From NCBI GenBank assembly GCA_963762565.1, contig CAVXLD010000004.1:1-64000 (forward strand): a DNA stretch of 64,000 nucleotides, read 5' to 3'. The notes beneath the pieces are model-generated. The model was not told the origin of the DNA, did no database searches, and was given only the letters and a program-made list of their open reading frames with translations. Of the stretch, positions 5,154-61,327 are shown in pieces; positions within the stretch are counted from its first letter, which is position 1, and every line of letters starts with the position of its first letter. The stretch comes from an uncultured Verrucomicrobiae bacterium (GTDB lineage Bacteria > Verrucomicrobiota > Verrucomicrobiia > Chthoniobacterales > JAFAMB01). The translations under genes were made by a program, and so were the position numbers.

Positions 5154-5317
5154 CCAGGGCCCGGCTCCGACTTCACAAGCTCGATGACAACAGAGCTACA
5201 ACACACAGTGCTACGTCGGACAAGTCGGCGCGCGCATCGGCCTCGTAAATCTGGAATCTTCGAAACGTCAACTTCCTTCGTGCAGCCGTTTAGGTCTTTC
5301 GGGAGCCTCGCCCCACC
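5154..5317 (-). repeat. Family A REP-like arm carrying a nested family C hairpin (5166-5224)
   Basis: Terminus ttcgggagcctcgccccacc, 70-nt insert at 5230-5299, and the ggctc^ggcg site interrupted. Confidence 0.85.
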
Positions 5318-5330
5318 AAGTGCTAACCAG

Positions 5331-6752
5331 CTAAACATTCAATCGGCTCTTCTTGTACCCGTACCCGAAATAAATCGCGAGGCCGATCACCAGCCAGACT
5401 ACCAGGCGGATCCAGGTGCTTGGCGGTAAGAAGACCATTTGAGCAAAGCAAAGGAGGGCGCCTACGATGGGCACGAAAGGAACCAGAGGTGTCTTGAATA
5501 GACGTGGCAGGTCCGGACGGGTTTTGCGCAGCACCATTACGCTGATACAGACGATCACGAAGGCGAGCAAAGTCCCGATCGAGACTAACTCACTGAGCAC
5601 GCCGATCGGGAAAAGGCCGGCCAGGGTTGCAGCGACGATCCCGGTCACAATGGTGGTTACGTGCGGCGTCTTGAACTTAGAATGGACCTTGGCGAAAACG
5701 CCCGGCAATAGCCCGTCAACAGCCATCCGGTAGAATATTCGCGGTTGGCCCAAGAGCAGCACCAGGATCACTGAGGTAATCCCAGCGATTGCACCAAGCT
5801 CGACCAAAGGCCGCAGCCAGGCAACGGATGGACCGACCTGTTGAATCGCAAAAGCAACCGGCGCCGGAACATCGAGTTGTTTGTAGTTAACCACCCCGGT
5901 TAGGACCAGCGACACCATCACATAAAGAACCGTACAGATGAGCAGCGATGCTAGGATTCCAATGGGGAGATCACGCTGCGGCTTTTTGGTTTCTTGGGCA
6001 GCAGTGGTTACCGCGTCGAACCCGATGTAGGCATAGAAAATCACGCCGGCGCCGGCCATGATCCCGGTCCAGCCAAATTGACCAAAACCGGTGGTGGGAG
6101 GAATGAAGGGCGCCCAGTTCTCCGGATGAACGTAAGGAAAACAAAAGGCGACGAAGAGCAGAATGATAACCACCTTTACCGCCACAATGACGGCATTCAC
6201 CGCCGACGATTCCCGGATCCCAACTACCAAAAGTACAGTAACAGCCAGGACAACCAGGACTGCGGGCAGATTAAGAATAGCTCCGGAAGCGACCCAACCT
6301 CCTTTAAACAGTAGCGGCGCATTACACAGCGCGGTTGGAAAATGGATACCGATACCGGAAAGGAAGGAAACCACGTAACCGGACCAACCAACCGCTACGG
6401 TGGCCGAACCGACCAGATACTCGAGGATTAGATCCCAGCCGATGATCCAGGCGAAGATTTCGCCGATGGTTGAGTAGGCGTAGGTATAAGCGCTACCACA
6501 AAGCGGGATCATCGATGCCAGTTCTGCGTAACAAAAACCGGCGCATAGACAACCAATCGCCGATATGATGAATGACAAGACAATGGCGGGACCAGCATGC
6601 TCAGCGGCTGCGGTCCCGGTGATCACAAAAATTCCGGTACCGACGATACATCCGATACCCAACAGCGTGAGTTGTAAGCCCCCCAACACAGGGCGCAGCG
6701 GGTTCTCTTCTGTGGTGGCCGGTTCTACCGGTTTTACGCGAAGCAGGTCCAT
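5331..6752 (-). CDS. Amino acid permease (APC superfamily, cationic amino acid transporter-like)
   Basis: GCIVGTGIFV, YAELAS and FYAYIGFDAV motifs; about 12 TM helices. Confidence 0.92.
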   Translation of the reverse strand: MDLLRVKPVEPATTEENPLRPVLGGLQLTLLGIGCIVGTGIFVITGTAAAEHAGPAIVLSFIISAIGCLCAGFCYAELASMIPLCGSAYTYAYSTIGEIFAWIIGWDLILEYLVGSATVAVGWSGYVVSFLSGIGIHFPTALCNAPLLFKGGWVASGAILNLPAVLVVLAVTVLLVVGIRESSAVNAVIVAVKVVIILLFVAFCFPYVHPENWAPFIPPTTGFGQFGWTGIMAGAGVIFYAYIGFDAVTTAAQETKKPQRDLPIGILASLLICTVLYVMVSLVLTGVVNYKQLDVPAPVAFAIQQVGPSVAWLRPLVELGAIAGITSVILVLLLGQPRIFYRMAVDGLLPGVFAKVHSKFKTPHVTTIVTGIVAATLAGLFPIGVLSELVSIGTLLAFVIVCISVMVLRKTRPDLPRLFKTPLVPFVPIVGALLCFAQMVFLPPSTWIRLVVWLVIGLAIYFGYGYKKSRLNV

Positions 6753-7115
6753 GGTCTAGCTAGTTCAATGATTCGTTTCTTTTTTTAGCAGAAACTAGTT
6801 TCCCGGCGCTGAGAGAGGGGAGCGCTCGCTCCGAGAACTAGCAGCTTCGAGACCCTTCTCAAAGCATTTTCCGGGAACGTTCCGTAACAATTTTTGCCCG
6901 GCCCAATTTGACAAAACGCTGGTACATAACATGCTAGGGCGAAAAAAGTAGGTTACTTCATTGTCGTTCCCCTGCCCTTGCTTCCTTGCCCTTTTTTCCG
7001 TAGACCCAGAGCTATTGGAAGTGAGAAAATTCTCGGTTAGCTACTAGCAAAGCCGTAGAAGTCAGCGCTAAGATCCTCGAATAAATCGAACCCGCACCCT
7101 AACAATCCGAACATT

Positions 7116-8151: not shown

Positions 8152-8153
8152 TC

Positions 8154-9086
8154 TTACGGCTTACCGTACGCCAGGCGATAAACCTCCCGGCGGAAGGTAA
8201 AGCGCAGGCCTGGGTCGCGAAGGCGGGCCAAGCTGGCCAACGATCGGTCCCGGGCTAAGCGGGTGACGACATCGTAGCCGATGAGGTAGCCGATTCTGCC
8301 GGGACCTTCTCCATCTTCGCGCTTGGTAAGGAAATGGACGGCAACATCATCTTCACGTGAGTCAAGACACAGCAGGAGGCGTTTCGCTTCGGCCGGAAGG
8401 GACGCTGGACCGTTCGCCGCTAACCTTTGATCGAACAGGACGTCTCCCAAGGATGCGCCGGCATTGAGCTGTTGGCTCGCGTACACTGCGAGTCCCTCCT
8501 GCCAGAGTAACCGATAGAGCGGTAGATCGTCTGGATTTTTCGGCAAAGGATTAACCTGGAAATGATAGAGATGAAAAAATTCATGCGAAAGAATCACCGA
8601 CAACGGCGCATCAGTTCCGTGAAAACGCGCCAGCCCGTCTAAGCCTATCAATAACGAGTCCGGATGCTCACTCGGGACTTTGGCGTCGAATTTGAAAAGA
8701 GATAACATCAAGTAAATCTTCACCTTACCGGGAGCGAATTCCGGGAAAGCTTGACAAAAACGATCGAGTATTGCCGGTTCTTCCTTCTCAAACAAAGCAT
8801 GCAGTCTTCGAATACCGGCCAGGTATAGCGGCACCCTTCCTACGTACGCCTTGACCTGCGATGAATCGACGTGCCAAAGCGTTTGATACACTTCAGGGTT
8901 CGCAGCTAAGACCTCCCTGGAAAAGAGTTCCGCCCGAGCATCGGTATCCTTGGGCAAGGTCGCTACCGCCTTCAATTCTTGCGGAATCAAATCGACGATC
9001 TCAGGTGACTCACTTGCTAAGCCAGTCGATAGAGCAAAAAAAAGCTGAACAATTAAAGCGAAAAAGGCAAAATCGCGATAGCTCAT
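8154..9086 (-). CDS. Putative secreted Zn-dependent protease (DUF2268-like)
   Basis: HEFFH...QEGLA and GYLIG motifs, with a signal-like segment after the Met at 9086. Confidence 0.75.
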   Translation of the reverse strand: MSYRDFAFFALIVQLFFALSTGLASESPEIVDLIPQELKAVATLPKDTDARAELFSREVLAANPEVYQTLWHVDSSQVKAYVGRVPLYLAGIRRLHALFEKEEPAILDRFCQAFPEFAPGKVKIYLMLSLFKFDAKVPSEHPDSLLIGLDGLARFHGTDAPLSVILSHEFFHLYHFQVNPLPKNPDDLPLYRLLWQEGLAVYASQQLNAGASLGDVLFDQRLAANGPASLPAEAKRLLLCLDSREDDVAVHFLTKREDGEGPGRIGYLIGYDVVTRLARDRSLASLARLRDPGLRFTFRREVYRLAYGKP

Positions 9087-15539: not shown

Positions 15540-15651
15540 AGGAGTTCAGGAGTTCAAGGCCTGCCGCGACGTAGGCTCTGGGGAGTCGGGGAGTTGGTAG
15601 GGCGTTTCACCCTGCGCGATCGCAGAGGCTATTCGGGAGCCTCGCCCTACC
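15540..15651. repeat. Octamer tract (GGAGTTCA), degenerate family C hairpin (15559-15589, minus) and a short family A remnant (15596-15651)
   Basis: ggtagggcg...ttcgggagcctcgccctacc; reverse strand reads ccgactcccc...ctacgtcgcggcaggc. Confidence 0.7.
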
Positions 15652-21245: not shown

Positions 21246-21344
21246 TGTTGGCCGCACCACGATCACAGCCCAGGTTCCCAATCACTGCCTTGTTCGTTAC
21301 CGCGTTCCCGCTCGATCGCGCTCGTTCTCGCTCGCTGCTAAGTG

Positions 21345-45588: not shown

Positions 45589-45614
45589 GGCAATGGTCTC
45601 CTAGCCCGTATTCA

Positions 45615-47510: not shown

Positions 47511-47653
47511 CGTATCCGTCTGCACGCCTACCACGCCCCGCCTCATAGCCCGTTTCTAGCGCCCGATCCATCCACCAAACTCGTAACTTGCGAATCATGT
47601 TCGCAAGCCGGAGCTTACCCCGGCAACTGAAAATTAAACCTGGAATCTGTATC

Positions 47654-48049: not shown

Positions 48050-48345
48050 TGAATCAAGAAACTACTTCTTCTGTCGGAGCGTCAGAATTTTCGGCTGAAA
48101 ATGTGGATCGCCTCTTCGGCCGGCTGGATGAGAAGGTCCGGCAATCACCGCGTGAAGCGGTGCTGATCGCCTTCTTAGCTGGGGCTCTGTTGCAGGTGTT
48201 CGCCATCCGACACCTAGTATTGACCGCGGCCCGCGTCATTTTGTGGTTAGCGACTCCGGTACTATTTGTGTTTACCGCATGGAGGCTGTTTCAACTGGGC
48301 AACTCCGACGGGGGGTTAGGCCGATTTTTTGGAACTAAACAGTAG
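48049..48345 (+). CDS. Hypothetical membrane protein
   Basis: VRQSPREAVLIAFLAG followed by hydrophobic helices. Confidence 0.65.
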   Translation: MNQETTSSVGASEFSAENVDRLFGRLDEKVRQSPREAVLIAFLAGALLQVFAIRHLVLTAARVILWLATPVLFVFTAWRLFQLGNSDGGLGRFFGTKQ

Positions 48346-48373
48346 GACTCGCCGATGTCGGCGGATGCCCCAC

Positions 48374-48725
48374 GCGCTTCGCGCGAATAACCAATAGCCG
48401 ATAGCCAATAGCCAAGGGGCCGGTCGCAAGAAAGTCGTGCGCTTTGGCGTGGATCGAATGTGGACGGGCGTAAGCTCGGTGGAGCATCAACCCCAAGATC
48501 ACAAGACCGAAGATCACAATACGGAAAGGTCACGAAGGCCACAAAGACCGATCGTATGAGTCTGATTTTCAGTTTCAGTCTTCGTGTCCTTTGTGATCTT
48601 TCCGTATTGTGAATCTCTAGTTTCTCTGGGAAGTCGAACGCATGATCCACAGGCAAAATCGATAAGCCGATCTTTCGTTGGCTATTGGCTATTGGCTATC
48701 GGCTATTGAGATATGCGCGAAGCGC
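48374..48725. repeat. Nested inverted repeats (gcgcttcgcg, then AATAGCC heptamers, then CACAAAGAY-type tracts)
   Basis: Mirror-ordered reverse-complement blocks ending at the permease stop codon. Confidence 0.85.
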
Positions 48726-49720
48726 TAATCGTGCCGCAGAAGCTTGCGGAAATAGTCGATCGATACGGCCAGAATGATCACTGCTCCGACAAAGACCCCT
48801 TGCCAATAGGGATCAATGCCAAAAAGCAGCAGACCATTCCGCAGAACTTCGAGAATAATCGCACCGATCACCGTTCCCAGAATTGTGCCTTCGCCGCCAG
48901 CCAGGTTCGCTCCGCCGATCACAGTAGCAGCAATGACGGCTAACTCATTTCCAGTACCCATGTCAGCCGTCACGCTTCCTAAGTAACTGAATTGAGTGAG
49001 GCCGGCGATTCCGGCCATCAGCGCACACAACATATAGACGATAATCTTAAGGCGATCGACCCGCAGACCCGTCAATCTCGCGGTGCGCTCGCTTCCGCCT
49101 ACCGCGTAGACGTACCGACCCCAAACCGTCCGCGAAAGCAGAATCCAGAAAAATAGGCTGGCGATACAGAAAATAATAAATGGATTCGGGATCCCGAAAA
49201 TATCGCCTCCACCGATCCAGAGAAAAGACCGGTATTCGTCGCCAAATATCGAAATCGGTCGTCCATGCGTAACGATGAGGGCAAAGCTTCTGGCGATGGC
49301 TAGGGTGGCCAGCGTTGGCACAAAGGGAGACATCTTAAGCTGGGTGATACAGAACCCGTTTAAGAGCCCGATACAACAGGCGGCCGAAAGGCTGAGGAGG
49401 ATGGCAAGAGGCTCTGGCACGCCATGGGTTAACAAATAGGCAACGATCACCGCCGTCATGCCAAACACCGATCCCACCGAAAGGTCGATTCCGCCGGTTA
49501 GGATGACGCAGGTCATACCCATCGCCACGATCCCAACGAACGAGAAATTCGTCGTAATATTGGCGATATTCTGGAGGTTTCGAAACTGTGGGATAAAGAT
49601 TGCCAGGACGAGCAACATCAAGATGAGGGCGCCAAGGATCCCTATCTCGCGGGGAAGGCGAACAGTCCGCCGGCGTGACGTCTTTTCTGGATGGGGGGGC
49701 GCCACGGCTTCGGAGTTCAT
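48725..49720 (-). CDS. Sugar ABC transporter permease (RbsC-like)
   Basis: GGIDLSVGS, GRYVYAVG and ELAVIAATVIGG motifs. Confidence 0.93.
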   Translation of the reverse strand: MNSEAVAPPHPEKTSRRRTVRLPREIGILGALILMLLVLAIFIPQFRNLQNIANITTNFSFVGIVAMGMTCVILTGGIDLSVGSVFGMTAVIVAYLLTHGVPEPLAILLSLSAACCIGLLNGFCITQLKMSPFVPTLATLAIARSFALIVTHGRPISIFGDEYRSFLWIGGGDIFGIPNPFIIFCIASLFFWILLSRTVWGRYVYAVGGSERTARLTGLRVDRLKIIVYMLCALMAGIAGLTQFSYLGSVTADMGTGNELAVIAATVIGGANLAGGEGTILGTVIGAIILEVLRNGLLLFGIDPYWQGVFVGAVIILAVSIDYFRKLLRHD

Positions 49721-49919
49721 CTCGAATTCTAGAATCGAATCACAGCGTTATGGAGGATTTTTTACGGGATTCAAACAAATTCCTGCAGAAAAGGCTTGCA
49801 ACCAGCTCTTAACGGATGTGCTCTCTTCAATTCAAGCATTTAGATAAAACGCGCAGCGTCTATCTAGATGTAAATATCTCCTGCATTGGTCCAAATGCAG
49901 GATCCCCCAACTACCAATT

Positions 49920-50876
49920 ATGCCAAACCAGAAATTGTTTCTCTTGGCGGGCGTGGCGGTTTGCTCGCTCGCTTTGCCGGCAGGCCTCCATGCCGCCGGA
50001 AAACAGAAGACCTTCGCGATTGTCCCGAAGTCGATTAGCATCTCATTCTACAACGATGTGGAAAAAGGTTGTAAGGAGGAAGGCGCCAAGCTGGGCGTGA
50101 ATGTCATTTATACGGGTCCAGACACCGCCGACGCCGCAAAACAGGTGCAAGTCTTACAGGATTTGGTCAGTCGCGGTGTCGATGGCTTTGCCGTTGCTCC
50201 CATGGACGGCGATGCCGTGATTGGAGTGATCGAATCTGCGACTAAGAAAGGAATCAAAGTGATCTGTTTCGACTCGGACTCTCCCAAATCGCAACGGACC
50301 TGTTTTGTTGGTACGAACAATGAACAAGGTGGCTACGAAGGCGGCAAAGCCTTTGCGTCGATGTTACCCAAAGGCAAATTTGCAGTTCTTACGGGTGGTT
50401 TGGCTTCCGTAAACCATAACCAGCGTGGCGACGGATTTCGTAAAGCATTGAAAGAGGCAGGAGGTGACTACACCGAAATCTCGGGTTCACCCTTCCCCTG
50501 CAATGACGACGCCGCAAAATCGATCCAGATCATCCAAGACACCTTGACTCGGTACCCCGATCTGGATGGGTTTTTCTTTTCGGGCGGCTGGCCTCTTTTC
50601 GGCGCTCCGGAAGCCTATCTGCGGGCAATGGGCAAGCACCTTGACGACATCAAGAGTAAGAAGTTTGTGGTCATCTCTTTCGACACCTTGCCGGAAGAGC
50701 TCAAAATCGTGAAACAGGGCGCCTGCAATGGCCTGATCGGCCAACGACCCTACGCGATGGGAGTCAAGAGCGTCGATATTCTGAATGACCTTACCGAAGG
50801 CAAAACCGTCCCTGCGGTTGTTGATACCGGCGTTGACGTCGTGACTTCGGCGAATGTGGATCAATTCTTGAAGTAA
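49920..50876 (+). CDS. Sugar ABC transporter substrate-binding protein (RbsB-like)
   Basis: Signal peptide, FDSD...VGTNN and GQRPYAMG motifs. Confidence 0.92.
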   Translation: MPNQKLFLLAGVAVCSLALPAGLHAAGKQKTFAIVPKSISISFYNDVEKGCKEEGAKLGVNVIYTGPDTADAAKQVQVLQDLVSRGVDGFAVAPMDGDAVIGVIESATKKGIKVICFDSDSPKSQRTCFVGTNNEQGGYEGGKAFASMLPKGKFAVLTGGLASVNHNQRGDGFRKALKEAGGDYTEISGSPFPCNDDAAKSIQIIQDTLTRYPDLDGFFFSGGWPLFGAPEAYLRAMGKHLDDIKSKKFVVISFDTLPEELKIVKQGACNGLIGQRPYAMGVKSVDILNDLTEGKTVPAVVDTGVDVVTSANVDQFLK

Positions 50877-50886
50877 TCGACCCGGT

Positions 50887-50912
50887 GGGCGGAAAGCGCC
50901 TGCTTTCCGCCC
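50887..50912. terminator. Hairpin between the convergent binding-protein gene and iol operon
   Basis: gggcggaaagc-gcct-gctttccgccc forms a perfect 11-bp stem; no clear U-tract. Confidence 0.55.
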
Positions 50913-51004
50913 GTCCAGACGAATCTGTCGCCAACTCTTATTTCTTACGAGTCAACCTTTTCGGCGCGATGTTAGACTAGGCAATAGTTAATGCTCGTCG
51001 TCCC

Positions 51005-51820
51005 TCAGCCCTTCATTGGAACCGTAATTGGGTTCCCGGCCCAATTTTGGGATACCCAATCGTACTCCGGGTCGTTGATCGCGGTTATCTTCCTGACATC
51101 CCCGGCCAGAAAATTCAGGTAATAGGCATTCGTTCCCGGCGCTTTGACAACTGGGTGGTATCCTTCGTGGATCAGGACCAAATCACCATTCTGAACTGGA
51201 ATCGCCACATCTAGATCCGTGTCTCGAGTATAGATCCGCTGAATCGCGAAACCGTTCTCCGGACGCAACCGATAGTAATAGGTCTCTTCGTGGTAAGAAG
51301 AATTATCGCGAGTGTCATGGCGATGGGGAGGAAAACTCGACCAATTGCCGCTCGGAGTATGAATCTCGTAAACGGTTAATCGCTCGGTGAGTTCGTCGGA
51401 ATCAGCCAGAGCACTCACGCCCCGTTTCACGTTAGCGTCACCGCGCACCGATGTCTTGATCTCGTCTTTTGAGATTCGCCGGGCCGGCAATTTACCTTCA
51501 GCAGGAGCGCCACCGATGGCCACCTCGATCGACTTGGCAGCTCGCAGCGAAAAATTGCTCCGGGGAGGGAGATAATAAATATCCGTGAGTTCCTCAAATA
51601 CCGACCTCCGCGAGAATGAAAACTCTTCCTCACCAAAGGCACAGAACCCTTCACCACTCAGCGGTACGACGACAAACTCTGACTCTTCCGTGTTGAACCG
51701 TTGAGTCTGCTCGGGCTCCAAAGCGAGGACGCGGAAGGAAAGATAACGCCACTCGGCTTCCTTCGGCGTAACGTTGATGCGAAACGGATTCGAATAGTTA
51801 GATCGATAATGGCGGTTCAC
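51005..51820 (-). CDS. iolB: 5-deoxy-glucuronate isomerase
   Basis: GNWSSFPPHRHD, EETYYY, GYHP and YYLNFLAG motifs. Confidence 0.93.
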   Translation of the reverse strand: MNRHYRSNYSNPFRINVTPKEAEWRYLSFRVLALEPEQTQRFNTEESEFVVVPLSGEGFCAFGEEEFSFSRRSVFEELTDIYYLPPRSNFSLRAAKSIEVAIGGAPAEGKLPARRISKDEIKTSVRGDANVKRGVSALADSDELTERLTVYEIHTPSGNWSSFPPHRHDTRDNSSYHEETYYYRLRPENGFAIQRIYTRDTDLDVAIPVQNGDLVLIHEGYHPVVKAPGTNAYYLNFLAGDVRKITAINDPEYDWVSQNWAGNPITVPMKG

Positions 51821-52836
51821 GGCTGTATCTCCGAAACTTTAACCGGGCGGTTCTCCTTCCAACTACGACTTGCCGCGATTGCCAGCCGCAGCGTCTCGAG
51901 CGCGTCTTCTGCGCCCGGAGACGGCATTTGGCCGGACTTGATCGCTTCAAAAAATGCTTGTAACTCCAGCCGATACGCGGCCTCGAAACGATCGGGAAAG
52001 TTTTCGTAATGATCGTAGCGAGCGCCAAATTCGCGCGACAAAGTCATCGGCGTTTTCTGCGGCGCTTCGATCACAACTTTGGCGTCTGCACCGGCTACTT
52101 CCGTCCGGATATCATAACCCCACTTTGAGCGCCGGGACGTTTCCACAACCCCTAACGCTCCATTCTTAAACTTGAGCAGGGTAACGGCCGTATCGCAGTC
52201 CTGGGCTTGGGCGAAGCGGTCGTCGATCAACACGGATCCCCAGGCGGACACCTCTTCAACCTCACCCACCAAAAACCGAGCCAAGTCGAGATCGTGAACC
52301 GCCATGTCCAGAAAGGAACCGCCGCTTTGAAGCAGAAACTTGAGCGGCGGCGGATAGGTATCACGGCTTAAAGCCCGAAAGGTTTCGATGCGGCCGAGCT
52401 CTCCCTGATCAATCCTTTTCTTCGCCTCCGCGTAACCCGGGTCATAGCGGCGCATGAAACCGAGCTGCACAAAAGCGCTCTTCTTTTGAATCAAATCAAC
52501 GACCCTCTTTGTCTCAGCCAAATCGAGGGCAATCGGCTTCTCGCTAAACACAGCTTTCCCAGCCTGCACGGCGGTCTCGATCAGTCGGGCATGCGTATCG
52601 GTCGGGGTAACGATAATCACGACATCGACCGATGGATCCAGAATTGCTTCTTCCGTGCTGACGATCGCCCAATCCGCACCTGATAATTCGCGCCCACGCT
52701 CAGCCGCCTTCAGATTCGGATCGGCTACCACCCTGACGCGAACACCATTGATCGACGCTAGATTTCGCAGATGAGTCTCGCCCATCCGCCCGCAACCGAG
52801 AAACGCAACGCCAATTTCCGCTTTCGCTTTGGTCAT
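51817..52836 (-). CDS. iolG: Inositol 2-dehydrogenase (Gfo/Idh/MocA)
   Basis: GCGRMG, SEKP, GFMRRYD, DMAVHD and GYDIRTEV motifs, in iol context. Confidence 0.82.
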   Translation of the reverse strand: MTKAKAEIGVAFLGCGRMGETHLRNLASINGVRVRVVADPNLKAAERGRELSGADWAIVSTEEAILDPSVDVVIIVTPTDTHARLIETAVQAGKAVFSEKPIALDLAETKRVVDLIQKKSAFVQLGFMRRYDPGYAEAKKRIDQGELGRIETFRALSRDTYPPPLKFLLQSGGSFLDMAVHDLDLARFLVGEVEEVSAWGSVLIDDRFAQAQDCDTAVTLLKFKNGALGVVETSRRSKWGYDIRTEVAGADAKVVIEAPQKTPMTLSREFGARYDHYENFPDRFEAAYRLELQAFFEAIKSGQMPSPGAEDALETLRLAIAASRSWKENRPVKVSEIQP

Positions 52837-53843
52837 TGAATCTCCTCTAGACGAACCACACGCCCTTCCTTATGGCTCCGAGTCGCTGCAATCCCAATTC
52901 GCAATGCTTCGACGGCATCGACCGCGCCCGGCGTTGGAGGACGGCCTTCTTGCACGCAAGCGAAGAACGACTCCAGCTCCGCTTGAAACGCGTCTTTGAA
53001 TCGATCCATGAAGAAGTAAAAATGATCTTCCTCGGAGCCCCCCTCCCGGTAATGACGCAACGGGCTCTTGCGTTCGGCGTGAACCACCAGTTTACCGCGT
53101 TCTCCGAATACTTCGGTTACAATGTCGTAGCCGTAGATCGCTCGACGTGAATTCTCGATCACCCCGAGCGCTCCGTTCTTAAACCGCAAGAGGGTGGTCG
53201 CGGTATCAACATCACCAAAGTCGGCCGCATCTTTAAGGAACCGGGCAGCTCCCCAGGCGCTGACCGATTCTACTTCGCCCACCAGAAATCGAGCCAGATC
53301 AATCTCGTGAATCATCTGATCCAAGAAGAGTCCGCCGCTCGTCTCAAGGTATTCCCGAGGAGGCGGCGCCGGGTCGCGGCCGACCGACCTGAATTGGTCA
53401 ATGCGGCCAATTAAGTTTCGATCGATCTTTCTCCGAGCTTCCGCATAACCGGTATCAAACCTTCGCTGGAACCCGATTTGGAAAGGAATAGCGGCTTGCT
53501 CGACCGCATGGAGCGCCTTCTTGGTGCGTTCCAGGTCCAATGCAACCGGCTTCTCACAAAACACCGCTTTGCCGGAGCGCGCGCCGGCCTCAATCAAATC
53601 TGCGTGGGTGCCGGTTGGGGTACAGATTACGACCGCATCGATCTCTTTTGATGCGAAGACTTCGGCAGGATCGCTGATCGCTTTTGCGCCCGGAGCCTTG
53701 GCGGCAATCTTTTCCGCTGCTTCCAGAATGGCATCACAAACCGTGGTCAAGGAAACACTGGGAGACCCGATCAATGTCCTGGCATGCTCTTGGCCAATCC
53801 GGCCGGCGCCGAGCAGAGCAACTCGAGTTCGTTTAGTATTCAT
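52833..53843 (-). CDS. iolG: Inositol 2-dehydrogenase-like paralogue (Gfo/Idh/MocA)
   Basis: GAGRIG, CEKP, GFQRRFD, DQMIHE and YGYDI motifs. Confidence 0.78.
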   Translation of the reverse strand: MNTKRTRVALLGAGRIGQEHARTLIGSPSVSLTTVCDAILEAAEKIAAKAPGAKAISDPAEVFASKEIDAVVICTPTGTHADLIEAGARSGKAVFCEKPVALDLERTKKALHAVEQAAIPFQIGFQRRFDTGYAEARRKIDRNLIGRIDQFRSVGRDPAPPPREYLETSGGLFLDQMIHEIDLARFLVGEVESVSAWGAARFLKDAADFGDVDTATTLLRFKNGALGVIENSRRAIYGYDIVTEVFGERGKLVVHAERKSPLRHYREGGSEEDHFYFFMDRFKDAFQAELESFFACVQEGRPPTPGAVDAVEALRIGIAATRSHKEGRVVRLEEIQ

Positions 53844-54772
53844 CTCTTGTTTTGAAAATCAGCTGCGATCCGTCGTGAAACCTGCAGGGCCGATAGCCCG
53901 TATTTATCGAGCAGAAAATCGTTGGGCGCAGATTCACCCCATTTGTCTTCGAGGCCGTAGCGGATCACCCGGCGTGGAGAATTCGCGGAGAGCAGCTCAG
54001 CCACCAGGCCGCCAAGCCCGCCGAAGATGCTATGTTCTTCCACGGTGAAAATGAGGTCGTAAGCGGAACAAGCGTCTATCAATGCGGCCTCGTTCAAAGG
54101 CTTAATCGAAGGAATGTGGAGAACGCCGAGCTCGATCTGTTGTTTCGCCAATTCGTTCGCCGCTTCAAAACAACGAGACGATTGCGGACCGGTCGAGATC
54201 AACAGGGCATGCTCGCCCCGGCGCAGCCAACGAATTTCACCGAGAGTGAATTGGTAATCCGCCGTAAACACATCCGCGCTGGCATCGCGAGTCAGTCGAA
54301 GATAGACCGGGCCCTCATATTCTGTGGCCCATTTAATCATAGCGGCGCATTCGTATTGATCCGCCGGCGCCAGCAGGGTCATCCCCGGCATCGCCCGCAT
54401 GATGGCCAGGTCCTCGACATCGTGGTGCGTTTTCCCGGTGTAACCGGTCATCAACCCCGAGTAAGCCGCACCAATTTTTACATTGGCGTTGGTCTGCGCA
54501 ACGAGCATCCGAATTGGATCAATCGCCCGATGAGTGAAGAAGACAGTGAAAGTCGAAAGCCAAGGAACAAAGCCCACCGCTGCCATACCGACCGCAACGC
54601 CCACCATGTTTTGCTCAGCGATCCCCATCTCCAAAAACCGGTCCGGATGAGCAGCCGCGAATTTGTCCGCTTTGGTGGAATTCGCGAGATCTCCATCGAG
54701 CATCACGACCCGCTGATCTTCCTTCGCCAAAGCTACCAGGGTGTCAGCCCAGACATCTCTTAGTGCTTTCAT
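53840..54772 (-). CDS. Split transketolase, C-terminal (pyrimidine-binding) subunit
   Basis: GIAEQNM, TGKTHH, GPVYLR and VEEHS...GGLG motifs. Confidence 0.92.
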   Translation of the reverse strand: MKALRDVWADTLVALAKEDQRVVMLDGDLANSTKADKFAAAHPDRFLEMGIAEQNMVGVAVGMAAVGFVPWLSTFTVFFTHRAIDPIRMLVAQTNANVKIGAAYSGLMTGYTGKTHHDVEDLAIMRAMPGMTLLAPADQYECAAMIKWATEYEGPVYLRLTRDASADVFTADYQFTLGEIRWLRRGEHALLISTGPQSSRCFEAANELAKQQIELGVLHIPSIKPLNEAALIDACSAYDLIFTVEEHSIFGGLGGLVAELLSANSPRRVIRYGLEDKWGESAPNDFLLDKYGLSALQVSRRIAADFQNKR

Positions 54773-55647
54773 TTTGCAGCCTCCGTGATCTGAAGTTCAC
54801 GCCGGGCAAGGTCGAGCTCAGCCGGGTTCGCAACCTTGGAATGCCATTCGAATTTCCCTTCGGTGAACGACAACCCTTTCCCTTTGAGCGTGCGCGCTAC
54901 AATCATGGTCGGGCGGCCAACCGGCGGTTGAGCTTTGCATTCCCGGATAGCGGGCAGGATTTCGTCGAAGCGATGGCCGTCGATCTGGACGACGCGCCAA
55001 CCCAGGTTCGCGAAAATCGCCGGCAAATCCACGTTATTCCAGGGATCGCGCCGGTCGCCTCGACCGTCAGCATCGTTCTGTTTCAACCAGCCAAACTGTT
55101 GGAGCCCGTTCGAATCCAGGATCGCGGTCAGATTCCCTAGCTGATAACGCGGGGCTAGGTGGAGTCCCTCCCAAATCATACCCTCTTGCAGTTCGCCGTC
55201 CCCGATCATGACAAAGGAATGAAAGCGTTCCTGTTTTTTCTGGGCCCCCAAGGCGAATCCGATCCCGACCGAAAGCCCCATTCCCAACGATCCGGTAGAT
55301 GTTTCGAGACCCGGTAGCTTGGTGACGTCTGGATGGCCTTGCAGCCGGGAATTGCCTTTGTCGAATGTCTTCAATTCTTCGACTGGAAAAAATCCTCTGA
55401 GCGCCATCACAGTGTATAGCCCGATGGCGGCATGACCTTTGGAAAGAATGAAACGGTCGCGCTCCGGCCATTTCGGTTCTTCCGGCCTGATCTCCATGCC
55501 CCGAAAGAAAAGGCTGATCAGCAGATCCATGGCTGACATGGGTCCGCCCACATGGCCGGCGCCGCTTCCGGCAACCGTGCTAAGCACCAACCAACGGCCT
55601 TGCCGCGATAGTTCCTCGAGATCGGAATAATCGGTATCTAGTTTCAT
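54769..55647 (-). CDS. Split transketolase, N-terminal (ThDP-binding) subunit
   Basis: GHVGG, DRFILSKGH, LQGHP, STGSLG, GDGELQEG...N and WH motifs. Confidence 0.93.
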   Translation of the reverse strand: MKLDTDYSDLEELSRQGRWLVLSTVAGSGAGHVGGPMSAMDLLISLFFRGMEIRPEEPKWPERDRFILSKGHAAIGLYTVMALRGFFPVEELKTFDKGNSRLQGHPDVTKLPGLETSTGSLGMGLSVGIGFALGAQKKQERFHSFVMIGDGELQEGMIWEGLHLAPRYQLGNLTAILDSNGLQQFGWLKQNDADGRGDRRDPWNNVDLPAIFANLGWRVVQIDGHRFDEILPAIRECKAQPPVGRPTMIVARTLKGKGLSFTEGKFEWHSKVANPAELDLARRELQITEAAK

Positions 55648-56513
55648 GTGATCAGTGGTTCTAGGTAGCGTCGATTGTTGGCCGCTATCTGGGTAGGATC
55701 GTCCGGGGTAGTGTCTTGTTCGACCACTAGCCAGCCGTTGTAGCCGGCTTGGCGCAGCGAATCGATGACGTCGGGCACTCTCGCGATGCCCTCACCCAGC
55801 GGAGCGAAGATGTAGGATTTTAAGGCCTGAGCAAAACTCCAACCGTTCTCCCGGGACTCCTTGAGCACCTGACCGTCGACATCTTTGATATGAACGTAAC
55901 CGACACGGTTACCGTATTTCTTTAGTGCCCGCAGGTTGTCACCGCCGCCGTAAGCAAGATGGCCGCAGTCCAGGCACCAGCTCACCAACTCCGGGTCCGT
56001 TTCGTCCAGGAGCCGGGTGGTTTCTTCCTCGGTTTCTACGTAGGTGCCGACGTGATTATGGAAAACGACCCGTACCCCAATCGAAGCCAGTTCTTTGGCC
56101 AGATCGTTTAGTCCGGTCCCGAGCGATTTCCATTGGTCATCAGTTAGGGCGCCGCTGGCATCAACGTGCCCGGCCTCACCGCGACGTCGATCGTCGCCGC
56201 TGTCGGCTGCGATCAAGTAGCCACCTCCAGCCGACTGGAAAAACCGGCCGATCTCGACTGCCCGAGCGATTTCGGCCTCACGTTTTTGACGATTACGCAG
56301 CTCCAAACCAACAAAGCCACCCAGCATTTGCAGGCTCCGCTGCTGGAGGTCGGACCGTAGCTTGGCGGTTTCTCGCTCCATGTTCATGCCCCATTCGGTG
56401 GCAACGTACCCCGCGGCCACCATCTCATCCAACAACGCTGGATAAGGCACCCAGGGCCGATAGTCGGTTACGTCTCCGTTGTTCCAATTAACCGGCGCAG
56501 TGGCGAGCTTCAT
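55644..56513 (-). CDS. iolE: Myo-inosose-2 dehydratase-like TIM barrel protein
   Basis: APVNW, FHNHVGT, LDCGH, VHIKD and WLVVEQD motifs, in iol context. Confidence 0.8.
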   Translation of the reverse strand: MKLATAPVNWNNGDVTDYRPWVPYPALLDEMVAAGYVATEWGMNMERETAKLRSDLQQRSLQMLGGFVGLELRNRQKREAEIARAVEIGRFFQSAGGGYLIAADSGDDRRRGEAGHVDASGALTDDQWKSLGTGLNDLAKELASIGVRVVFHNHVGTYVETEEETTRLLDETDPELVSWCLDCGHLAYGGGDNLRALKKYGNRVGYVHIKDVDGQVLKESRENGWSFAQALKSYIFAPLGEGIARVPDVIDSLRQAGYNGWLVVEQDTTPDDPTQIAANNRRYLEPLIT

Positions 56514-58402
56514 GCTAAAACCGGGCGCTGCTTCTTGGTGGCTTCCTCGTAGTTCACCCGGGTTGTCTTGGTGTGATCCGCCGAGCTAACTTCTGCGACC
56601 GGCACATCCCACCAGGTTCCCATTCCCGGCATTCGGTTTTCGGGATCGACCGGGATCACCACTACCGTGATCCGGTCTGACTTACGCGCTTTCTCCAGCG
56701 CCGCTTTCACTTCGCTGGAAGTGGTCGCGAAGATGGATAGGGCGCCCATCGATGCCGCATGTTTCTGGAAGTCGACCGGAACATAATCGCCCGCCGGTGC
56801 ACCCTCTTTCCCGTCGCGGAAACGGAGTTCGTTACCGAAATCGGCTACCCCGACCGCCCGCTGCAAACCGAGAATGCATTGGAACCCGTGGTTGTCGACC
56901 AATACAATCGTGATCCGAATTCCTTCAGCGACTGCGGTCACGATCTCGGAATTCATCATCAGATAAGAGCCGTCCCCAACCATCACGACGACTTCCCGTT
57001 CCGGTTCCGCCAATTTCACCCCCAGGCCACCTGCGATCTCGTAACCCATGCAAGAATATCCGTATTCGAGGTGATAGGCTTTCGGATCCTCAGGCCGCCA
57101 GAGCCGGAGTAGCTCGCCCGGCAGGCCACCAGCCGCGCAAACGACGGTCGCCTTGCCGCCGAAGCTTTCGTTGACTAATCCGATGACGGCGGTCTCAGCC
57201 AGTTTGCCCGGTGTATCATTCTTTACCGAGCGTATGTCAGTGACTTTGGCATCCCACTCCGCCTTCAGCGATTTTACCTGGCTCCGGTATTCCTGGCTGG
57301 TTCCTCTGTAGCCGCTTTCGCGCAACGCCTGGCTCAATGCACCCAGCGCTCGTTTCGCATCGGCCACGACCGGCAACGCGGCTAGCTTATTCGCGTCCAT
57401 CGGCACCACATTGATGCCGATAAATCGGACCGACGGGTTCTGGTAAGCCGATTTCGACGCGGTGGTGAAATCGCTCAGCCGGGTGCCCAATGCGATCACT
57501 AAATCCGCGTCCACAGCTAACCGGTTTGCACTGGTAGATCCGTTTGATCCAACCGGGCCAGCATTCAGCTCATGGTTCCAATTGAGAACCCCCTTCCCGG
57601 CTTGCGTCTCGCTGATTGGGATCCCGAACTCTTCCACGAAGGCCCGCAAATCTTCGGCTGCCTCGGCGTAAATGGTACCGCCACCCGAAACGATCAACGG
57701 TTTTGACGCACCGGCGATCAACTCTGCCGCCTTACGAATCAGCTCCGGCTCAGGCAATGGCCGGCGCACATGCCAAACCCGGCGCTCGAAAAATTCGACC
57801 GGATAATCGTAAGCTTCGGCCTGAACATCTTCCGGCAAACTAATGGTGACGGCGCCAGTCTCTGCGGGATCGGTCAAGACACGAAAGGCTTCCGGTAAGC
57901 TGGCCAATAATTGTTCGGGTCGGGAGATGCGATCGAAAAACTTCGAAACCGGCCGGAAAGCATCACTTACGCTGACATCTCTTTCCAGAGGATGCTCCAA
58001 TTGTTGAAGCACCGGGTCAGGAATACGATTGGCGAAATAATCGCTGGGCAATAGCAGGACGGGCAACCGATTGACGCTCGCCGCAGCGGCGCCGGTAATC
58101 ATGTTCGTGGCGCCGGGACCAATTGAGGTTGTGCAGGCAAACGTCGCTAACCGGTTTCGATGTTTGGCAAATGCAGCCGATAAGTGGACCATCGCCTGTT
58201 CATTCTGAGGTCGATAAAAGGGCAGCCCTTCTTCCCGAGCCAACTCGACGATGCCTTGACCAAAGCCGGCGACGTTGCCGTGCCCGAAGATACCCCAAAT
58301 CCCTTCGATAAAGCGGCTTTGACGGCCGTCGCGTTCAACGAATTGGCGAGCCAGGAATCGGGTCAGAGCCTGGCCAGTGGTTAGTCGTACGGTACGATTC
58401 AT
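56510..58402 (-). CDS. iolD: 3D-(3,5/4)-trihydroxycyclohexane-1,2-dione acylhydrolase
   Basis: RLTTGQAL, IFGHGNVAG, PDPVLQQLE, YHLEYGYSCMGYE and WWDVPV motifs. Confidence 0.96.
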   Translation of the reverse strand: MNRTVRLTTGQALTRFLARQFVERDGRQSRFIEGIWGIFGHGNVAGFGQGIVELAREEGLPFYRPQNEQAMVHLSAAFAKHRNRLATFACTTSIGPGATNMITGAAAASVNRLPVLLLPSDYFANRIPDPVLQQLEHPLERDVSVSDAFRPVSKFFDRISRPEQLLASLPEAFRVLTDPAETGAVTISLPEDVQAEAYDYPVEFFERRVWHVRRPLPEPELIRKAAELIAGASKPLIVSGGGTIYAEAAEDLRAFVEEFGIPISETQAGKGVLNWNHELNAGPVGSNGSTSANRLAVDADLVIALGTRLSDFTTASKSAYQNPSVRFIGINVVPMDANKLAALPVVADAKRALGALSQALRESGYRGTSQEYRSQVKSLKAEWDAKVTDIRSVKNDTPGKLAETAVIGLVNESFGGKATVVCAAGGLPGELLRLWRPEDPKAYHLEYGYSCMGYEIAGGLGVKLAEPEREVVVMVGDGSYLMMNSEIVTAVAEGIRITIVLVDNHGFQCILGLQRAVGVADFGNELRFRDGKEGAPAGDYVPVDFQKHAASMGALSIFATTSSEVKAALEKARKSDRITVVVIPVDPENRMPGMGTWWDVPVAEVSSADHTKTTRVNYEEATKKQRPVLA

Positions 58403-58843
58403 AAGATGTGAGAGGTGGTTGGTGAGGGGTCAGGTTACCGGGGGCATGCCACAGAAGTAATCAGTAAACAGTAATCAGTGATCGAAAAATGAGGGTCACC
58501 ACGATACGACGAAGCGTGGCGCCGGTTCGGGGGAACACCGGTGGTTGCGTGTGGGGGGGCGTTAAGGGGGACGGTCGACTTTCGTTTGGTTTTCGTTGTG
58601 ATAAAGAAATGAAATCGAATCCTTTCCGTTTCAACCTGAATTTTTGACGAAATTTTAGCGGACCAGACCATCACCACCGCTTCTGGCCGGATCGGTTTTC
58701 CGCTCTTGGAAACATTCGGACCAGCATCCTTCAGACAACCCTCGCCATCATGAAAAAAGAGTTCGAATTGCTTTCGTTGGTCGCAGAAGACGATATCCTT
58801 TTGCTTCCCGGGTTCAGAGAACCGGATCGCCCGACTTAACAGT

Positions 58844-60985
58844 ATGAAACATTGTTCCGTCCGAATCATGGCCATAGTGGCAGGATCCCCGCTGGTGTTG
58901 ATGGCGCCCAGCAGCCAGGCAGACCAGGGCGCTTGGTTGTTCAACGCGCCGCCGCTGAAGCAATTGAAGGAAAAATACCATTTTACCCCAGACGCAGCCT
59001 GGTTGGAGCACATCCAAAAGAGCAGCGTTCGGTTTGACAACGGAGCCAGCGGTTCGTTTGTGTCCGCGAACGGTTTAGTCATCACCAATCAGCACGTCGG
59101 GGCCGACGCTTTGCAGGAATTCGGAGACGCTCAGCACAATTATACTCGAGACGGATTTTACGCCGCCACACCGGCCGAGGAAAAGCGGTGTTACGACTTG
59201 GAACTCAACGTTCTGGAGTCAATCGAGGATGTCACCGGGCGAGTCAACGCCGCAGTCCCCCCTGCCAGCAAACCCGAGGAGGCCGTGGCGGCACGGCGAA
59301 AAGTCATCGCCGAGATCGAGCAGGAGTCGGCCAAAAGAACTGGGTTGCGCAGCGACGTGGTGACTCTTTTCGAAGGAGGCAGTTATCAATTGTACCGCTA
59401 TAAACGATATACCGATGTGCGCCTGGTTTTTGCGCCGGAGGAGGGAATAGCGTCTTATGGTGGCGATCCCGATAATTTCGAATATCCGCGCTACGATTTG
59501 GATATCTGTCTGTTTCGCGTATACGAAAATAATCAACCGGTTCATCCTGAGCATTATCTGCGGGTTAATGTTGACGGGCCATCTGAGCATGACTTGGTCT
59601 TCGTGAGCGGAAATCCAAGTAGTACCAATCGCATGTGTACCGTCGCCGCGATCGAAGAGGAACGGGATACTATCCTGCCGACCATTTTGGCGGCCCTCAA
59701 ACGAAGAGAAGTTTTCCTGACCGCTTATAGCGCGCGCGCGATAGAAAACGCACGACGGGCCCGAGACTACCTTTTGGAAATACAGAATTCCAGAAAGGCC
59801 TGCGACGGTCTGTTAGCCGGATTACTCGATCCGGAATCGCTCCGTCTGATCTCTGAAAATGAAAATGGATTGAAATCGGCTGCCGCTCAAGACGCTCGTT
59901 TTTCGAATATTCCGGATGCGTATGCGGAGATTCAGAAGGCCATCTCTGCTGATCCGGAAAATATTGTGAAGTTTATGTTCTATGAGAATTCCCACGCGAG
60001 GACTTCGGTGTTCGAACCGTTCGGAGCGTACCCGATAGGGTTCGACGGTCAGTTGTTTGCGATTGCTCGTGCTTTAGTTCGCGCGACTGAAGAACGCGAA
60101 AAACCAAACGAGAAACGCTTGCCCGAGTACCGCGACTCCGCTCGACCGAGCCTGGAGCTCGGGTTGTTCTCTGCAGCACCGATCTACGATGATTTAGAGA
60201 TACTGGCACTCAGCGATGCGCTAACTAGTTTGGTTTCCGCTTACGGAGTTGATGACCCGGTCGTCCGTGGCTTGCTGCAGGGGAAGTCTCCTCACGACCG
60301 CGCTTACGAGTTAGTGAAAAACACGCGGCTAAAGGACGTCCAATTTCGCCATCAGCTTTATGACGGAGGCGTTGCCGCCTTAAGAGCTGCTGCTGATCCA
60401 ATGATTCAATTTGCGCAAGCAGCCGATCAGGTTGCTCGCCAGGCGCGAGAGACCATGGAGGAACAGGACGAGGTGATGAATAAGGCATACGCCGAAATCG
60501 CAAAAGCAAAACTGGCACTCGAGGCAGACCAATTCCCGCCCGATGCAACTTTCACTTTACGGTTGTCTTTCGGAACCGTGCAGGGCTACGAGCAAGATGG
60601 AAAAACGATCCCGACATTTACGAATTTTGCGGGATTGTATCAGCGGGCCGATGAACACGAAAATCGCCCGCCATTCGCATTGCCAACCCGCTGGGTAAAT
60701 AAGCGTACAGTAATCGACTCGAAAACCCCCTTTGACTTTGTGGCCACGACAGACATCGTCGGCGGCAATAGCGGCAGCCCAGTGATAAATCGGAACGGCG
60801 ATTTTGTTGGCATCATCTTTGACGCAAACATTCAGTCATTGCCTTGGGATTATCTTTATTCGGATAAACAAGGACGGGCTGTCGCAGTTGATTCTCGAGC
60901 GATTCTTGAAGCGCTAAAACACGGCTACGACGTTCCGGCTCTGGTAAGCGAGTTAGCCGGGGGAACGCAGACTGCCGACAAGTAA
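58844..60985 (+). CDS. S46 family dipeptidyl peptidase
   Basis: ADQGAW (DEGMW-like), TNQH, PDATFTLRLSFG and DIVGGNSGSP motifs. Confidence 0.92.
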   Translation: MKHCSVRIMAIVAGSPLVLMAPSSQADQGAWLFNAPPLKQLKEKYHFTPDAAWLEHIQKSSVRFDNGASGSFVSANGLVITNQHVGADALQEFGDAQHNYTRDGFYAATPAEEKRCYDLELNVLESIEDVTGRVNAAVPPASKPEEAVAARRKVIAEIEQESAKRTGLRSDVVTLFEGGSYQLYRYKRYTDVRLVFAPEEGIASYGGDPDNFEYPRYDLDICLFRVYENNQPVHPEHYLRVNVDGPSEHDLVFVSGNPSSTNRMCTVAAIEEERDTILPTILAALKRREVFLTAYSARAIENARRARDYLLEIQNSRKACDGLLAGLLDPESLRLISENENGLKSAAAQDARFSNIPDAYAEIQKAISADPENIVKFMFYENSHARTSVFEPFGAYPIGFDGQLFAIARALVRATEEREKPNEKRLPEYRDSARPSLELGLFSAAPIYDDLEILALSDALTSLVSAYGVDDPVVRGLLQGKSPHDRAYELVKNTRLKDVQFRHQLYDGGVAALRAAADPMIQFAQAADQVARQARETMEEQDEVMNKAYAEIAKAKLALEADQFPPDATFTLRLSFGTVQGYEQDGKTIPTFTNFAGLYQRADEHENRPPFALPTRWVNKRTVIDSKTPFDFVATTDIVGGNSGSPVINRNGDFVGIIFDANIQSLPWDYLYSDKQGRAVAVDSRAILEALKHGYDVPALVSELAGGTQTADK

Positions 60986-61006
60986 TTTCCCGCTCAGCTG
61001 ATATCC

Positions 61007-61327
61007 GGAAGGGCGAGGCTCCCGAAAGAGCGAGCGGTTGAACAAGGCTCAGCTGCCTAAACCTCGCCAACTACAAGCTAGGTACACAAGCGCGCCGAGC
61101 CATGGTCTATCATGGGCCACGGCTCCGACTTCGCTCTCACTTTGTACCTAGATCACTAACAGCGCCGAAAAGCTACGTCGGACAAGTCGGCGCGTCTTTT
61201 GGCGTTGGTCGATGATAGGTTGAGTGCAGGCGATTTTCCCTTGACTACAGACTGGGTCTCTCAGGAGCCTCGCCCCGCCAATCGCCAATCACCAATCACC
61301 AATCACCAATCACCAATCACCAATCAC
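61007..61327 (+). repeat. Family A element (61007-61279) with a nested family C hairpin (61124-61186), followed by ~7 ACCAATC units
   Basis: Homologous to 37667 and 38994, which lack the insertion. Confidence 0.92.

Follow-up and report, generated by a model that had tools for sequence, protein, structure and literature searches.

The first 64,000 nt of contig CAVXLD010000004.1 (hereafter the window), from an uncultured Verrucomicrobiae bacterium of the order Chthoniobacterales, contain five copies of a short hairpin that carries no gene, and each of them lies inside another repeat. How does so small a palindrome, here called hairpin C, come to sit in unrelated repeats, and what is the DNA that fills its loop? 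The window corresponds to C4:1-64000 of a 6.1-Mb, 15-contig assembly (GCA_963762565.1), whose contigs are cited below by number with the prefix C. An original prediction, made from the letters of the window, held that hairpin C is a non-autonomous element that targets other repeats and captures spacer-sized DNA. The first half of this proposal stands, since hairpin C occupies fixed positions in other repeats and empty positions greatly outnumber filled ones; the second half, the capture of DNA, is not supported. We consider it about an even chance (a probability near 0.5) that hairpin C is a very small, gene-less palindromic module resembling repetitive extragenic palindromes (REPs), a variant of the type that REPs and bacterial interspersed mosaic elements (BIMEs) represent.

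The intergenic DNA of soil Verrucomicrobiota of this clade is crowded with layered small repeats, of which hairpin C is one building block. Its exact empty and filled sites and its defined 30-nt hairpin, complete with mismatches, bulge and tail, provide a handle on how such mosaics form, and it is present in about a quarter of the sampled genomes of the phylum.

Copy Number and Structure of Hairpin C

The consensus of the original prediction, written as a regular expression (strict pattern), was found 159 times in the genome and not once in the reversed genome, which served as the control. A relaxed pattern allowing two substitutions per arm gave 484 copies against 40 in the control. These counts lie far above the control, demonstrating that the motif is real and abundant. 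Copies with a loop of up to 75 nt form a set of 434, on which the structural analysis is based. The core of the hairpin reads TCCG(A/C)C.YCGC - loop - SCTWYG(K)CG(N)GAC, and its basic form spans 29-31 nt. An unpaired 3' tail, CARG, is conserved (CAGG in 293 copies and CAAG in 91); the opposite strand accordingly begins with CYTG at its 5' end.

Two pairs of positions at which both bases are unconstrained by the search pattern, L5-R7 and L1-R11, were found to covary. At L5-R7, 227 copies carry C-G and 162 carry A-T, against 15 with C-T and 12 with A-G, while L1-R11 is T-A in 344 copies, C-G in 46 and G-C in 11. The lower stem comprises 6 bp, and the arms above it are conservedly non-complementary: a fixed C.T mismatch at L9-R3 is present in 414 of the 434 copies, L7-R5 is mismatched as T.C in 259 or as G.T in 129, and the 3' arm bears a bulged extra base in 166. 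This conserved asymmetry, coupled with a loop that is free to take any length, favors a protein that recognizes the folded single strand, and it counts against both a stable RNA and a double-stranded binding site. Rfam 15 yielded no match on hairpin C copies, either in the window at the gathering threshold or in the surroundings of two copies at E values up to 1.

Insertion into Other Repeats

Direct reading of the window, together with the consensus pattern, located the four copies that had been claimed to fit the consensus, on the plus strand at 5166-5224, 28874-28902 and 61124-61186, and on the minus strand at 45419-45478. A fifth copy, claimed as degenerate, is real and is not degenerate: it is a minus-strand copy of the CCCGAC..GCGGCAGG subtype at 15560-15590, reading CCCGACTCCCC-agag-CCTACGTCGCGGCAGG on that strand, with a 4-nt loop. 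It lies within a tandem array of the word 'gaactc', and its subtype is seen again in other 'gaactc' word arrays of the genome. Two more matches to the relaxed pattern in the window, at 8310-8400 and 22756-22818, look like chance.

For the other four copies, uninterrupted counterparts of the insertion site were identified in the window itself, at the positions where they had been proposed. The 5166-5224 copy, which has an ACAAG tail and a 33-nt loop, is flanked by ...cagggcccGGC on the left and TCGGCGCGCGC on the right, and its 12-nt left flank is the same as that of the empty site ccagggcccggc|tcggcg at 25607-25630 on the plus strand. The 61124-61186 copy, again with an ACAAG tail and with a 37-nt loop, interrupts the 3' arm of a host hairpin, E, at GGC^TCGGCGCG. 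The uninterrupted form of this host, GCGCGCCGAGCC-loop-GGCTCGGCGCG, was found on the plus strand at 37755-37789 (CCGAGCC..GGCTCGGC) and at 39083-39117. The 28874-28902 copy, with a 2-nt loop and a bulged 3' arm (GGCGCGAC), interrupts a repeat of the word 'cgcagat' (host D), which is empty at 31766-31782 on the plus strand (cgcagatgga|cgcagat). The 45419-45478 copy, whose 34-nt loop is one of a family of related loops present in multiple copies, sits in the loop of host hairpin B, the filled host extending over 45395-45500 of the minus strand (GCGCGCGAGGA ... CAGCGCGCCCTCCCC). An empty B at 45563-45582 on the plus strand is its partner arm in one inverted doublet, such that a filled and an empty arm can be read side by side at 45395-45582. 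Empty B hairpins also occur at 63083-63102 on the minus strand and at 35018, 35110, 62072, 62163 and 63175. At the empty sites of both D (near 31772) and B (near 63087), GGA-C-GC corresponds to GGA-[element]-CA-GC in the filled form.

Host B is itself a hairpin. Its stem shows compensatory variants in this genome (GGATCGC/GCGATCC and GGCGCGC/GCGCGCC) and in another genus (GGCGCAC/GTGCGCC); its loop is GAGGAC or GGGGAC, and CCCTCCC comes after the hairpin, as at 63083-63102 and 45395-45500 (further cases in loci L019-L063).

Over the whole genome, at least one exact paralogous empty site exists for 231 of the 434 copies. Counts of filled and empty sites by regular expression gave 74 and 303 for host B, 14 and 421 for host A, 5 and 169 for host D, 47 and 357 for host F, and 3 and 29 for host G. 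For host E they gave 1 and 208, the strict E expression being an undercount of filled sites, as a listing of flanks reveals four copies of this genome in the GGC^TCGGC context. Insertion into other repeats, as proposed originally, is thus borne out in at least six host families, with empty copies far in excess of filled ones.

The point of insertion is characteristic of each host: the apical loop of B (GGGGA^C) and of A (CT^TG), the joints between units of the word arrays D, F and G, and a position within the 3' arm of E. Nesting can be mutual, as the 70-nt loop class of hairpin C holds host A and host A copies hold hairpin C, and copies of hairpin C were also found within the 3' arm of other copies. 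A precise insertion, with filled and empty sites in one element, comes from another genus of the same family, in an element carrying the gene of a REP-associated tyrosine transposase (RAYT). The left inverted repeat of this element is interrupted by a 59-nt hairpin C copy (11 + 33 + 15) lying exactly between CACGCCT and TCGGCGCTA, and its right inverted repeat is uninterrupted; the insertion point, CGCCT^TCGGCG, is in the hairpin loop of the RAYT repeat. The left junction is flush; the right one is equally so in some hosts, but in others shows 1-2 extra or changed bases. The right flank is biased towards NCGGCG in the ACAAG subtype only. The 'TC' noted originally on both sides of this subtype amounts to a 2-nt ambiguity in placement, with no demonstrable duplication.

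Distribution and Genomic Setting

Among the closest relatives, the pattern was detected in 17 of 41 genomes including this one (15/24 in the same family, 1/16 elsewhere in the order), and the control gave none. Congeners carry 16-46 long-loop copies each, and their loops are very diverse. Twenty regions, fetched because they carry the TCCGACTTCGC...GGACAAG subtype, contain 21 copies; TCGGC follows directly after 14 of these, most of which are preceded by ..GGC, the E-host context of the window. In another genus, the same arms were found in the same B host, with 30-36-nt loops unrelated to those of this genome, and tight doublets are likewise present in another genus. Of the named species genomes that were scanned, only three records, all metagenome-assembled genomes of soil Verrucomicrobiota, contain the exact long-loop pattern. 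The short form is much more widespread: among 201 high-quality genomes of the phylum, 47 contain it, at 1-33 copies each, and these represent 28 of 104 genera (control, 0). Over the phylum, all four bases, C, G, T and A, are seen at the bulge. This patchy copy number, from 0 to more than 400 per genome, fits a dispensable repeat.

The short hairpin was also detected in 36 stretches of IMG/VR, flanked by word arrays. At four of these loci (L142, L147, L151 and L165) it lies within arrays of the words caatatt, tcaacca and cgcagat. Its presence in the word arrays of unrelated metagenomic 'viral' contigs indicates that a plan of word array plus hairpin core is not peculiar to this genome.

Within the genome, 295 of the 434 copies lie outside a crude map of open reading frames (ORFs) that covers 81% of the sequence and probably over-calls ORFs. 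Between tandem genes, the orientation of hairpin C is even (74 vs 80). A separate observation concerns base composition: copies with loops of ~33 nt have their motif on the strand that is locally richer in G in 69 cases against 34 genome-wide, a bias absent in short-loop copies (68 vs 61) and in copies with 70-nt loops (30 vs 29).

Spacers that contain these repeats show turnover. In five congeners the spacer orthologous to that holding the 5166 copy is unrelated, and just 1 of 31 metagenome loci with the gene neighboring this spacer has a hairpin C nearby. A strain 96.6% identical in the neighboring permease-like gene has an entirely different downstream spacer and gene order (L208 compared with window positions 5033-5330), and the spacer of this strain includes an empty E hairpin. 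Repeat-filled spacers turn over faster than 3-4% coding divergence. In relatives of region 60600-61700, the genes align and nothing else does.

Hairpin C as a Proposed REP-like Module

An excerpt of Di Nocera et al. 2013 (PMC3733652) describes REPs as imperfect palindromes of 20-40 bp, high in copy number and found for the most part outside genes, either singly or in dimers and mosaics. In the same excerpt, which covers the GTAG and CGTC superfamilies, some families of REPs are inserted in small target palindromes that are also found empty in hundreds of copies, and the spacers of REP dimers may differ in sequence at similar length. Hairpin C resembles them in size (29-31 nt), abundance (159 strict and 484 relaxed copies) and compensatory pairs. 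Together with host B it also forms ~260-nt inverted doublets with a spacer of 92-97 nt, which recall the REP doublets known as REPINs and, as reported of these in an excerpt of Bertels and Rainey 2011 (PMC3116915), behave as a diverging sequence population. In contrast to REPINs, the doublet unit of hairpin C is a composite of two nested hairpins, and in contrast to REPs, its apical loop takes discrete classes of insert up to 72 nt.

A number of results weigh against a REP-like identity. Hairpin C has no terminal GTAG or CGTC tag, its ends being TCCG... and ...GACARG; GTAG, the complement of CTAC, is present solely within the mismatched upper stem of some subtypes. REPs normally differ between genera, and the near-identity of the arms of hairpin C in many genera, over the whole phylum, is unusual for them. 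Nor was hairpin C found adjacent to a RAYT gene. The 12 Y1_Tnp hits in this genome are bordered by repeats of other kinds; only one of them has a copy within 2.5 kb, which is the level of chance, and no single-copy RAYT bracketed by hairpin C was found at these 12 hits, at 28 Y1 loci of relatives (three of which have a single copy on one side) or at 12 Y1 loci of five distant genomes rich in hairpin C. Left flanks end in GGA, CCT, GCT, TCT, GAA, GGC and others, with no common tetranucleotide. The 3' junction in host B is unclean, GGA[C]C(A/T/G)GCG replacing the empty GGA-C-GCG, and several hosts are alike in this; simple cut-and-paste therefore provides no explanation. Folding of the five window copies as single-stranded DNA is weak (-3.3 to -8.5 kcal/mol; z, -1.3 to +0.3), and the composite of B and C folds with z = +1.0. 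In addition, 138 of the 434 copies fall within long ORFs of the crude map, which probably over-calls. Finally, an orthologous pair of filled and empty alleles was not demonstrated between close strains, the orthologous spacers being too rearranged in the five congeners and the 31 metagenome loci, and short-read contigs breaking at the repeats. Such breaks are evident in four public runs covering 44800-62200, where contigs end at 45340/45416 and at 61120, i.e. at repeats; among public runs, 20 soil DNA runs contain the stretch and no RNA runs are listed.

Other classes of small element fit less well. A miniature inverted-repeat transposable element was rejected, as it would call for terminal inverted repeats and a fixed target-site duplication, and the junctions of hairpin C are either flush or differ by 0-2 added bases, confined to the 3' side. 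The ends of IS200/IS605 elements and of their gene-less derivatives consist of a mismatched or bulged hairpin with an adjoining single-stranded tail, of which one strand is read, and their insertion produces no target-site duplication. Hairpin C is similar in its mismatches, bulge and adjacent unpaired tail, but has no conserved 5' target tetra- or pentanucleotide and presents one hairpin rather than two different ends. The small dispersed repeats of Nostoc that Elhai and colleagues are said to have described in 2008 reportedly look mobile, measure <30 nt, carry no gene and nest in other repeats. For one of these, SDR5, an excerpt of PMC5861425 gives the palindrome HIP1 as the insertion site. 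They belong to a different phylum and differ in sequence, and hairpin C is distinguished further by loop inserts of 13 to 72 nt and by its conservation over a phylum. Given that hairpin C fits neither the tagged REPs nor REPIN-RAYT systems, MITEs, IS200/IS605 elements, attC sites or CRISPR repeats (clustered regularly interspaced short palindromic repeats), the last two of which are considered below, it appears to be a variant of the REP/BIME kind and a member of none of these classes.

The copy number, the nesting, the empty and filled sites, the covariation and the distribution over the phylum are observed facts, to which a REP-like module would add a mechanism acting on single strands and a kind of enzyme that we infer in this analysis. 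Hairpin C would spread as DNA, into targets that are single-stranded or prone to form hairpins; the landings shown here are in other small palindromes, at their apical loop or in their stem, and where the units of tandem word arrays meet. Host repeat and hairpin C may then be amplified together as one composite, the halves of which reassort. The lower stem, fixed mismatches, bulge and tail would form the putative recognition surface for a trans-acting protein that reads the folded strand, most likely of the Y1/HUH type. The apical loop, in this proposal, would be functionally free, so that it drifts and accepts other modules, giving rise to discrete loop classes.

Alternative Explanations for the Dispersal of Hairpin C

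Dispersal might require no dedicated enzyme at all: hairpin C could be a 'word' in a modular vocabulary of repeats, which template switching or gene conversion carries from one repeat to another as hairpin-rich DNA is replicated, through microhomology such as CGGCG or GGA..GC. The inverted doublets of B and C provide one argument for such a process. About ten pairs in minus-then-plus order, with gaps of 92-97 nt, were identified, and nine were aligned. In the closest pair of doublets the two loops are 97% and 94% identical and the spacer is just 80% identical; in other pairs one loop is 94% identical and the second loop and the spacer are at the level of unrelated sequence, indicating that the halves of doublets reassort. 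The same loop subfamily, moreover, occurs in B hosts of the CG type and the AT type, the 0-2 extra or changed bases at 3' junctions and the similarity of the NCGGCG following the ACAAG subtype to the element's own 3' arm also speak for it, and no partner enzyme emerged at the Y1 loci of this genome, of its relatives or of distant genomes rich in hairpin C. The precise 59-nt insertion in the RAYT repeat, where flanking homology is at most 2 nt, is difficult to reconcile with this process, as is the presence of one module in at least six unrelated hosts, and the phylum-wide conservation of mismatches, bulge and unpaired tail points to recognition by a protein over passive copying. We regard template switching as unlikely, with roughly the standing of a serious minority view.

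A motif useful to the host and multiplied for that use, whether as an RNA hairpin (one that terminates transcription, stabilizes mRNA or is a site of processing) or as the target of a replication or nucleoid protein, would account for the conservation of the arm sequence in 28 of 104 genera, for the compensatory pairs, for the enrichment in intergenic DNA and for the strand bias of the ~33-nt class (69 vs 34 on the G-rich strand). Such a motif should hardly be absent from 154 of 201 high-quality genomes and vary from 0 to >400 copies. It shows no preferred orientation relative to genes (74 vs 80), no T-run, a weak folding energy and no Rfam family, and it sits in other selfish-looking repeats and in the inverted repeat of a transposase. 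We therefore find a host function improbable. A similarly doubtful possibility is that hairpin C is the recognition hairpin of a phylum-wide enzyme acting on single-stranded DNA, other than a classical RAYT, which inserts it into the loops of folded repeats. The loop would then be a true cargo position with a ruler of ~30-37 nt and a content that is exchanged and not just mutated. Loop exchange against such a ruler, if true, would explain why similar host flanks surround unrelated loops of equal length in several genera.

Folded recombination sites were considered as well. The attC site is a folded imperfect palindrome with extrahelical bases and a terminal loop of highly variable length, and hairpin C could be the analogous site of a tyrosine recombinase, its loop corresponding to the variable terminal structure of attC. 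Hairpin C agrees with this description in its imperfect pairing, its bulged base and its loop of 2 to 72 nt, and 6 of the 7 positions of GTCGGAC and its complement fit what we take to be the attC core, GTTRRRY/RYYYAAC. The genome, though, has neither an integron integrase (IntI), the best TIGR02249 hit scoring 78 bits against a cut-off of 265, nor cassettes or cassette arrays. The core is a different one, the upper stem is only 2 bp, the 29-31-nt short form is far below any attC in length, and copies lie in repeats and not at gene ends. An attC-like site is very improbable.

Loop Content

The loops were the ground for the capture reading, in which the element acquires unique, spacer-sized DNA of 33-37 nt. 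Loop lengths over the whole genome fall into discrete classes with no continuum: 2-5 nt (173 copies), 13-14 (5), 16-18 (19), 21-23 (17), 31-37 (127) and 68-72 (69). Loops of 13, 16, 23 and 70 nt form conserved sequence families. For the ~33-nt class, a weak consensus was found, with C first, a run of A in the middle and AG last, and a composition of 34% A and 14% T. Mean pairwise identity was determined for 47 copies in host B with loops of exactly 33 nt: the arms, on which the search itself was based, reach 95-97%, the inner host flanks 81-85% and the loop 48%, compared with 35% for unrelated outer flanks. The 33-nt loops resolve into subfamilies of 14, 13, 5, 5 and smaller, with 12 singletons.

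Within the window, the three long loops are mutually unrelated, as had been noted; in the genome as a whole the 34-nt loop has a family, its best alignment score of 53 being reached by none of 200 shuffles. The 37-nt loop of the 61124 copy has no relative in the genome, and neither does the 33-nt loop of the 5166 copy, for which a marginal one was found in a congener (7 of 200 shuffles reach its score). A minority of loops, these two included, remain orphans, with length constant at 30-37 nt across genera.

A source for the loop sequences was sought in several places. When long loops were compared with the genome by short-query BLAST, 56 of 126 hit themselves alone. Hits outside recognized copies were obtained for 20 of 126, mostly to one unrecognized hairpin C copy at C5:84103, and no match was found in the rest of the genome outside hairpin C copies. 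Loops gave no sign of having been copied from their own 250-nt flanks or of pairing with them, as the longest word in common did not differ from that obtained with the flanks of other copies. Phage records gave one 19-nt chance match at E = 0.3, and plasmid records and exact matching to IMG/VR gave none. The search of genome, phages, plasmids and IMG/VR thus revealed no source sequence. In recent doublets, loops are conserved as well as, or better than, the adjoining ~95-nt spacer, demonstrating that loops are not hypermutating. The spacer of doublets keeps its 92-97 nt while diverging, from which it follows that constant length with changing sequence is general to these repeats.

The genome does contain a CRISPR locus, on contig C2, in which 48 copies of a 36-nt repeat recur with a period of 71-77 nt (L179:9324-12900). 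Adjoining this array is a 653-amino-acid ORF with a full Cas1 domain (L179:13339-15300), which may be a fusion, to judge by its additional ~370 residues. Between the 36-nt repeat and the arms of hairpin C there is no relationship. Head-to-tail arrays of hairpin C itself occur at C5:2622-2801, C3:609301-609420, C3:521798-521925 and C13:115398-115486, with a period of ~30 nt where loops are short, or of exactly 60 nt where the loops are 33 nt and near-identical to one another. These are plain tandem duplications that mimic a miniature CRISPR array. Identification of hairpin C as a CRISPR array or a solitary CRISPR repeat was rejected on the basis of the different repeat, of loops without a foreign match and of the near-identical 'spacers' of the tandem arrays.

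In favor of capture, loops of differing sequence hold to a length of 30-37 nt across four host contexts as well as other genera, many match nothing but themselves, as do the orphan loops of 5166 and 61124 in this genome, and copies in host E of congeners, with flanks ~85% similar, carry loops judged by eye to be unrelated. Nevertheless, loop families and subfamilies, shared consensus and conservation in recent copies, together with the lack of any outside match, an equally length-constant doublet spacer and an unrelated CRISPR repeat, leave the capture of spacer-sized DNA unsupported, and we give it next to no credence.

Search for a Partner Enzyme

As predicted, the window encodes no enzyme for hairpin C. 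A gene flanked by copies had been suggested as the route to one; it was sought at Y1 loci and between inverted pairs of hairpin C, and no enzyme was identified. Inverted pairs enclosing genes numbered 19, approximately the number expected by chance, and the five that were inspected enclose ordinary proteins (Host_attach-like, ROK, TonB, HlyD) or proteins of no family. None of the 12 Y1_Tnp hits of this genome has host B nearby. Five Y1 proteins of 146-170 amino acids, one of them interrupted by an in-frame stop, are flanked by other repeats, namely GTAG-type palindromes, GTCCCGTAGGGAC and a CCTAGGGC..GCCCTAGGCTATCTTGA repeat. If a partner enzyme were found, the REP/RAYT picture would be extended to untagged hairpins that target other hairpins.

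Another protein family, of ~350 amino acids, combines an N-terminal Y1_Tnp domain with ~225 residues that have no Pfam match (L014:1465-2511, equivalent to C1:531665-532708; paralogues in L015-L017). This genome encodes four diverged paralogues of the 348-amino-acid protein, which have no flanks in common, and the family was found with this query in 73 of 201 genomes of the phylum, at up to 9 copies per genome. As a partner of hairpin C it was rejected: it is present in 23 of 46 genomes with hairpin C and in 49 of 154 without, an odds ratio of 2.1 among genomes that are kin and not independent, and four genomes rich in hairpin C yielded no member with this query.

Repeats such as these have practical consequences, as they break short-read assemblies and yield spurious ORFs and mis-annotated small RNAs (sRNAs). 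The sole Rfam hit in the window, at 21201-21246, is to the 'sRNA' family Acido-Lenti-1 (RF01687). This hit has the sequence architecture of the inverted repeats found on either side of RAYT (Y1 transposase) genes, and at gathering score the RF01687 model also matches one RAYT-flanking repeat in this genome (L012:1368-1412) and one in another genus (L083:1925-1969). On account of these matches, the family would seem to represent a DNA repeat associated with transposases, and not a gene for an sRNA.

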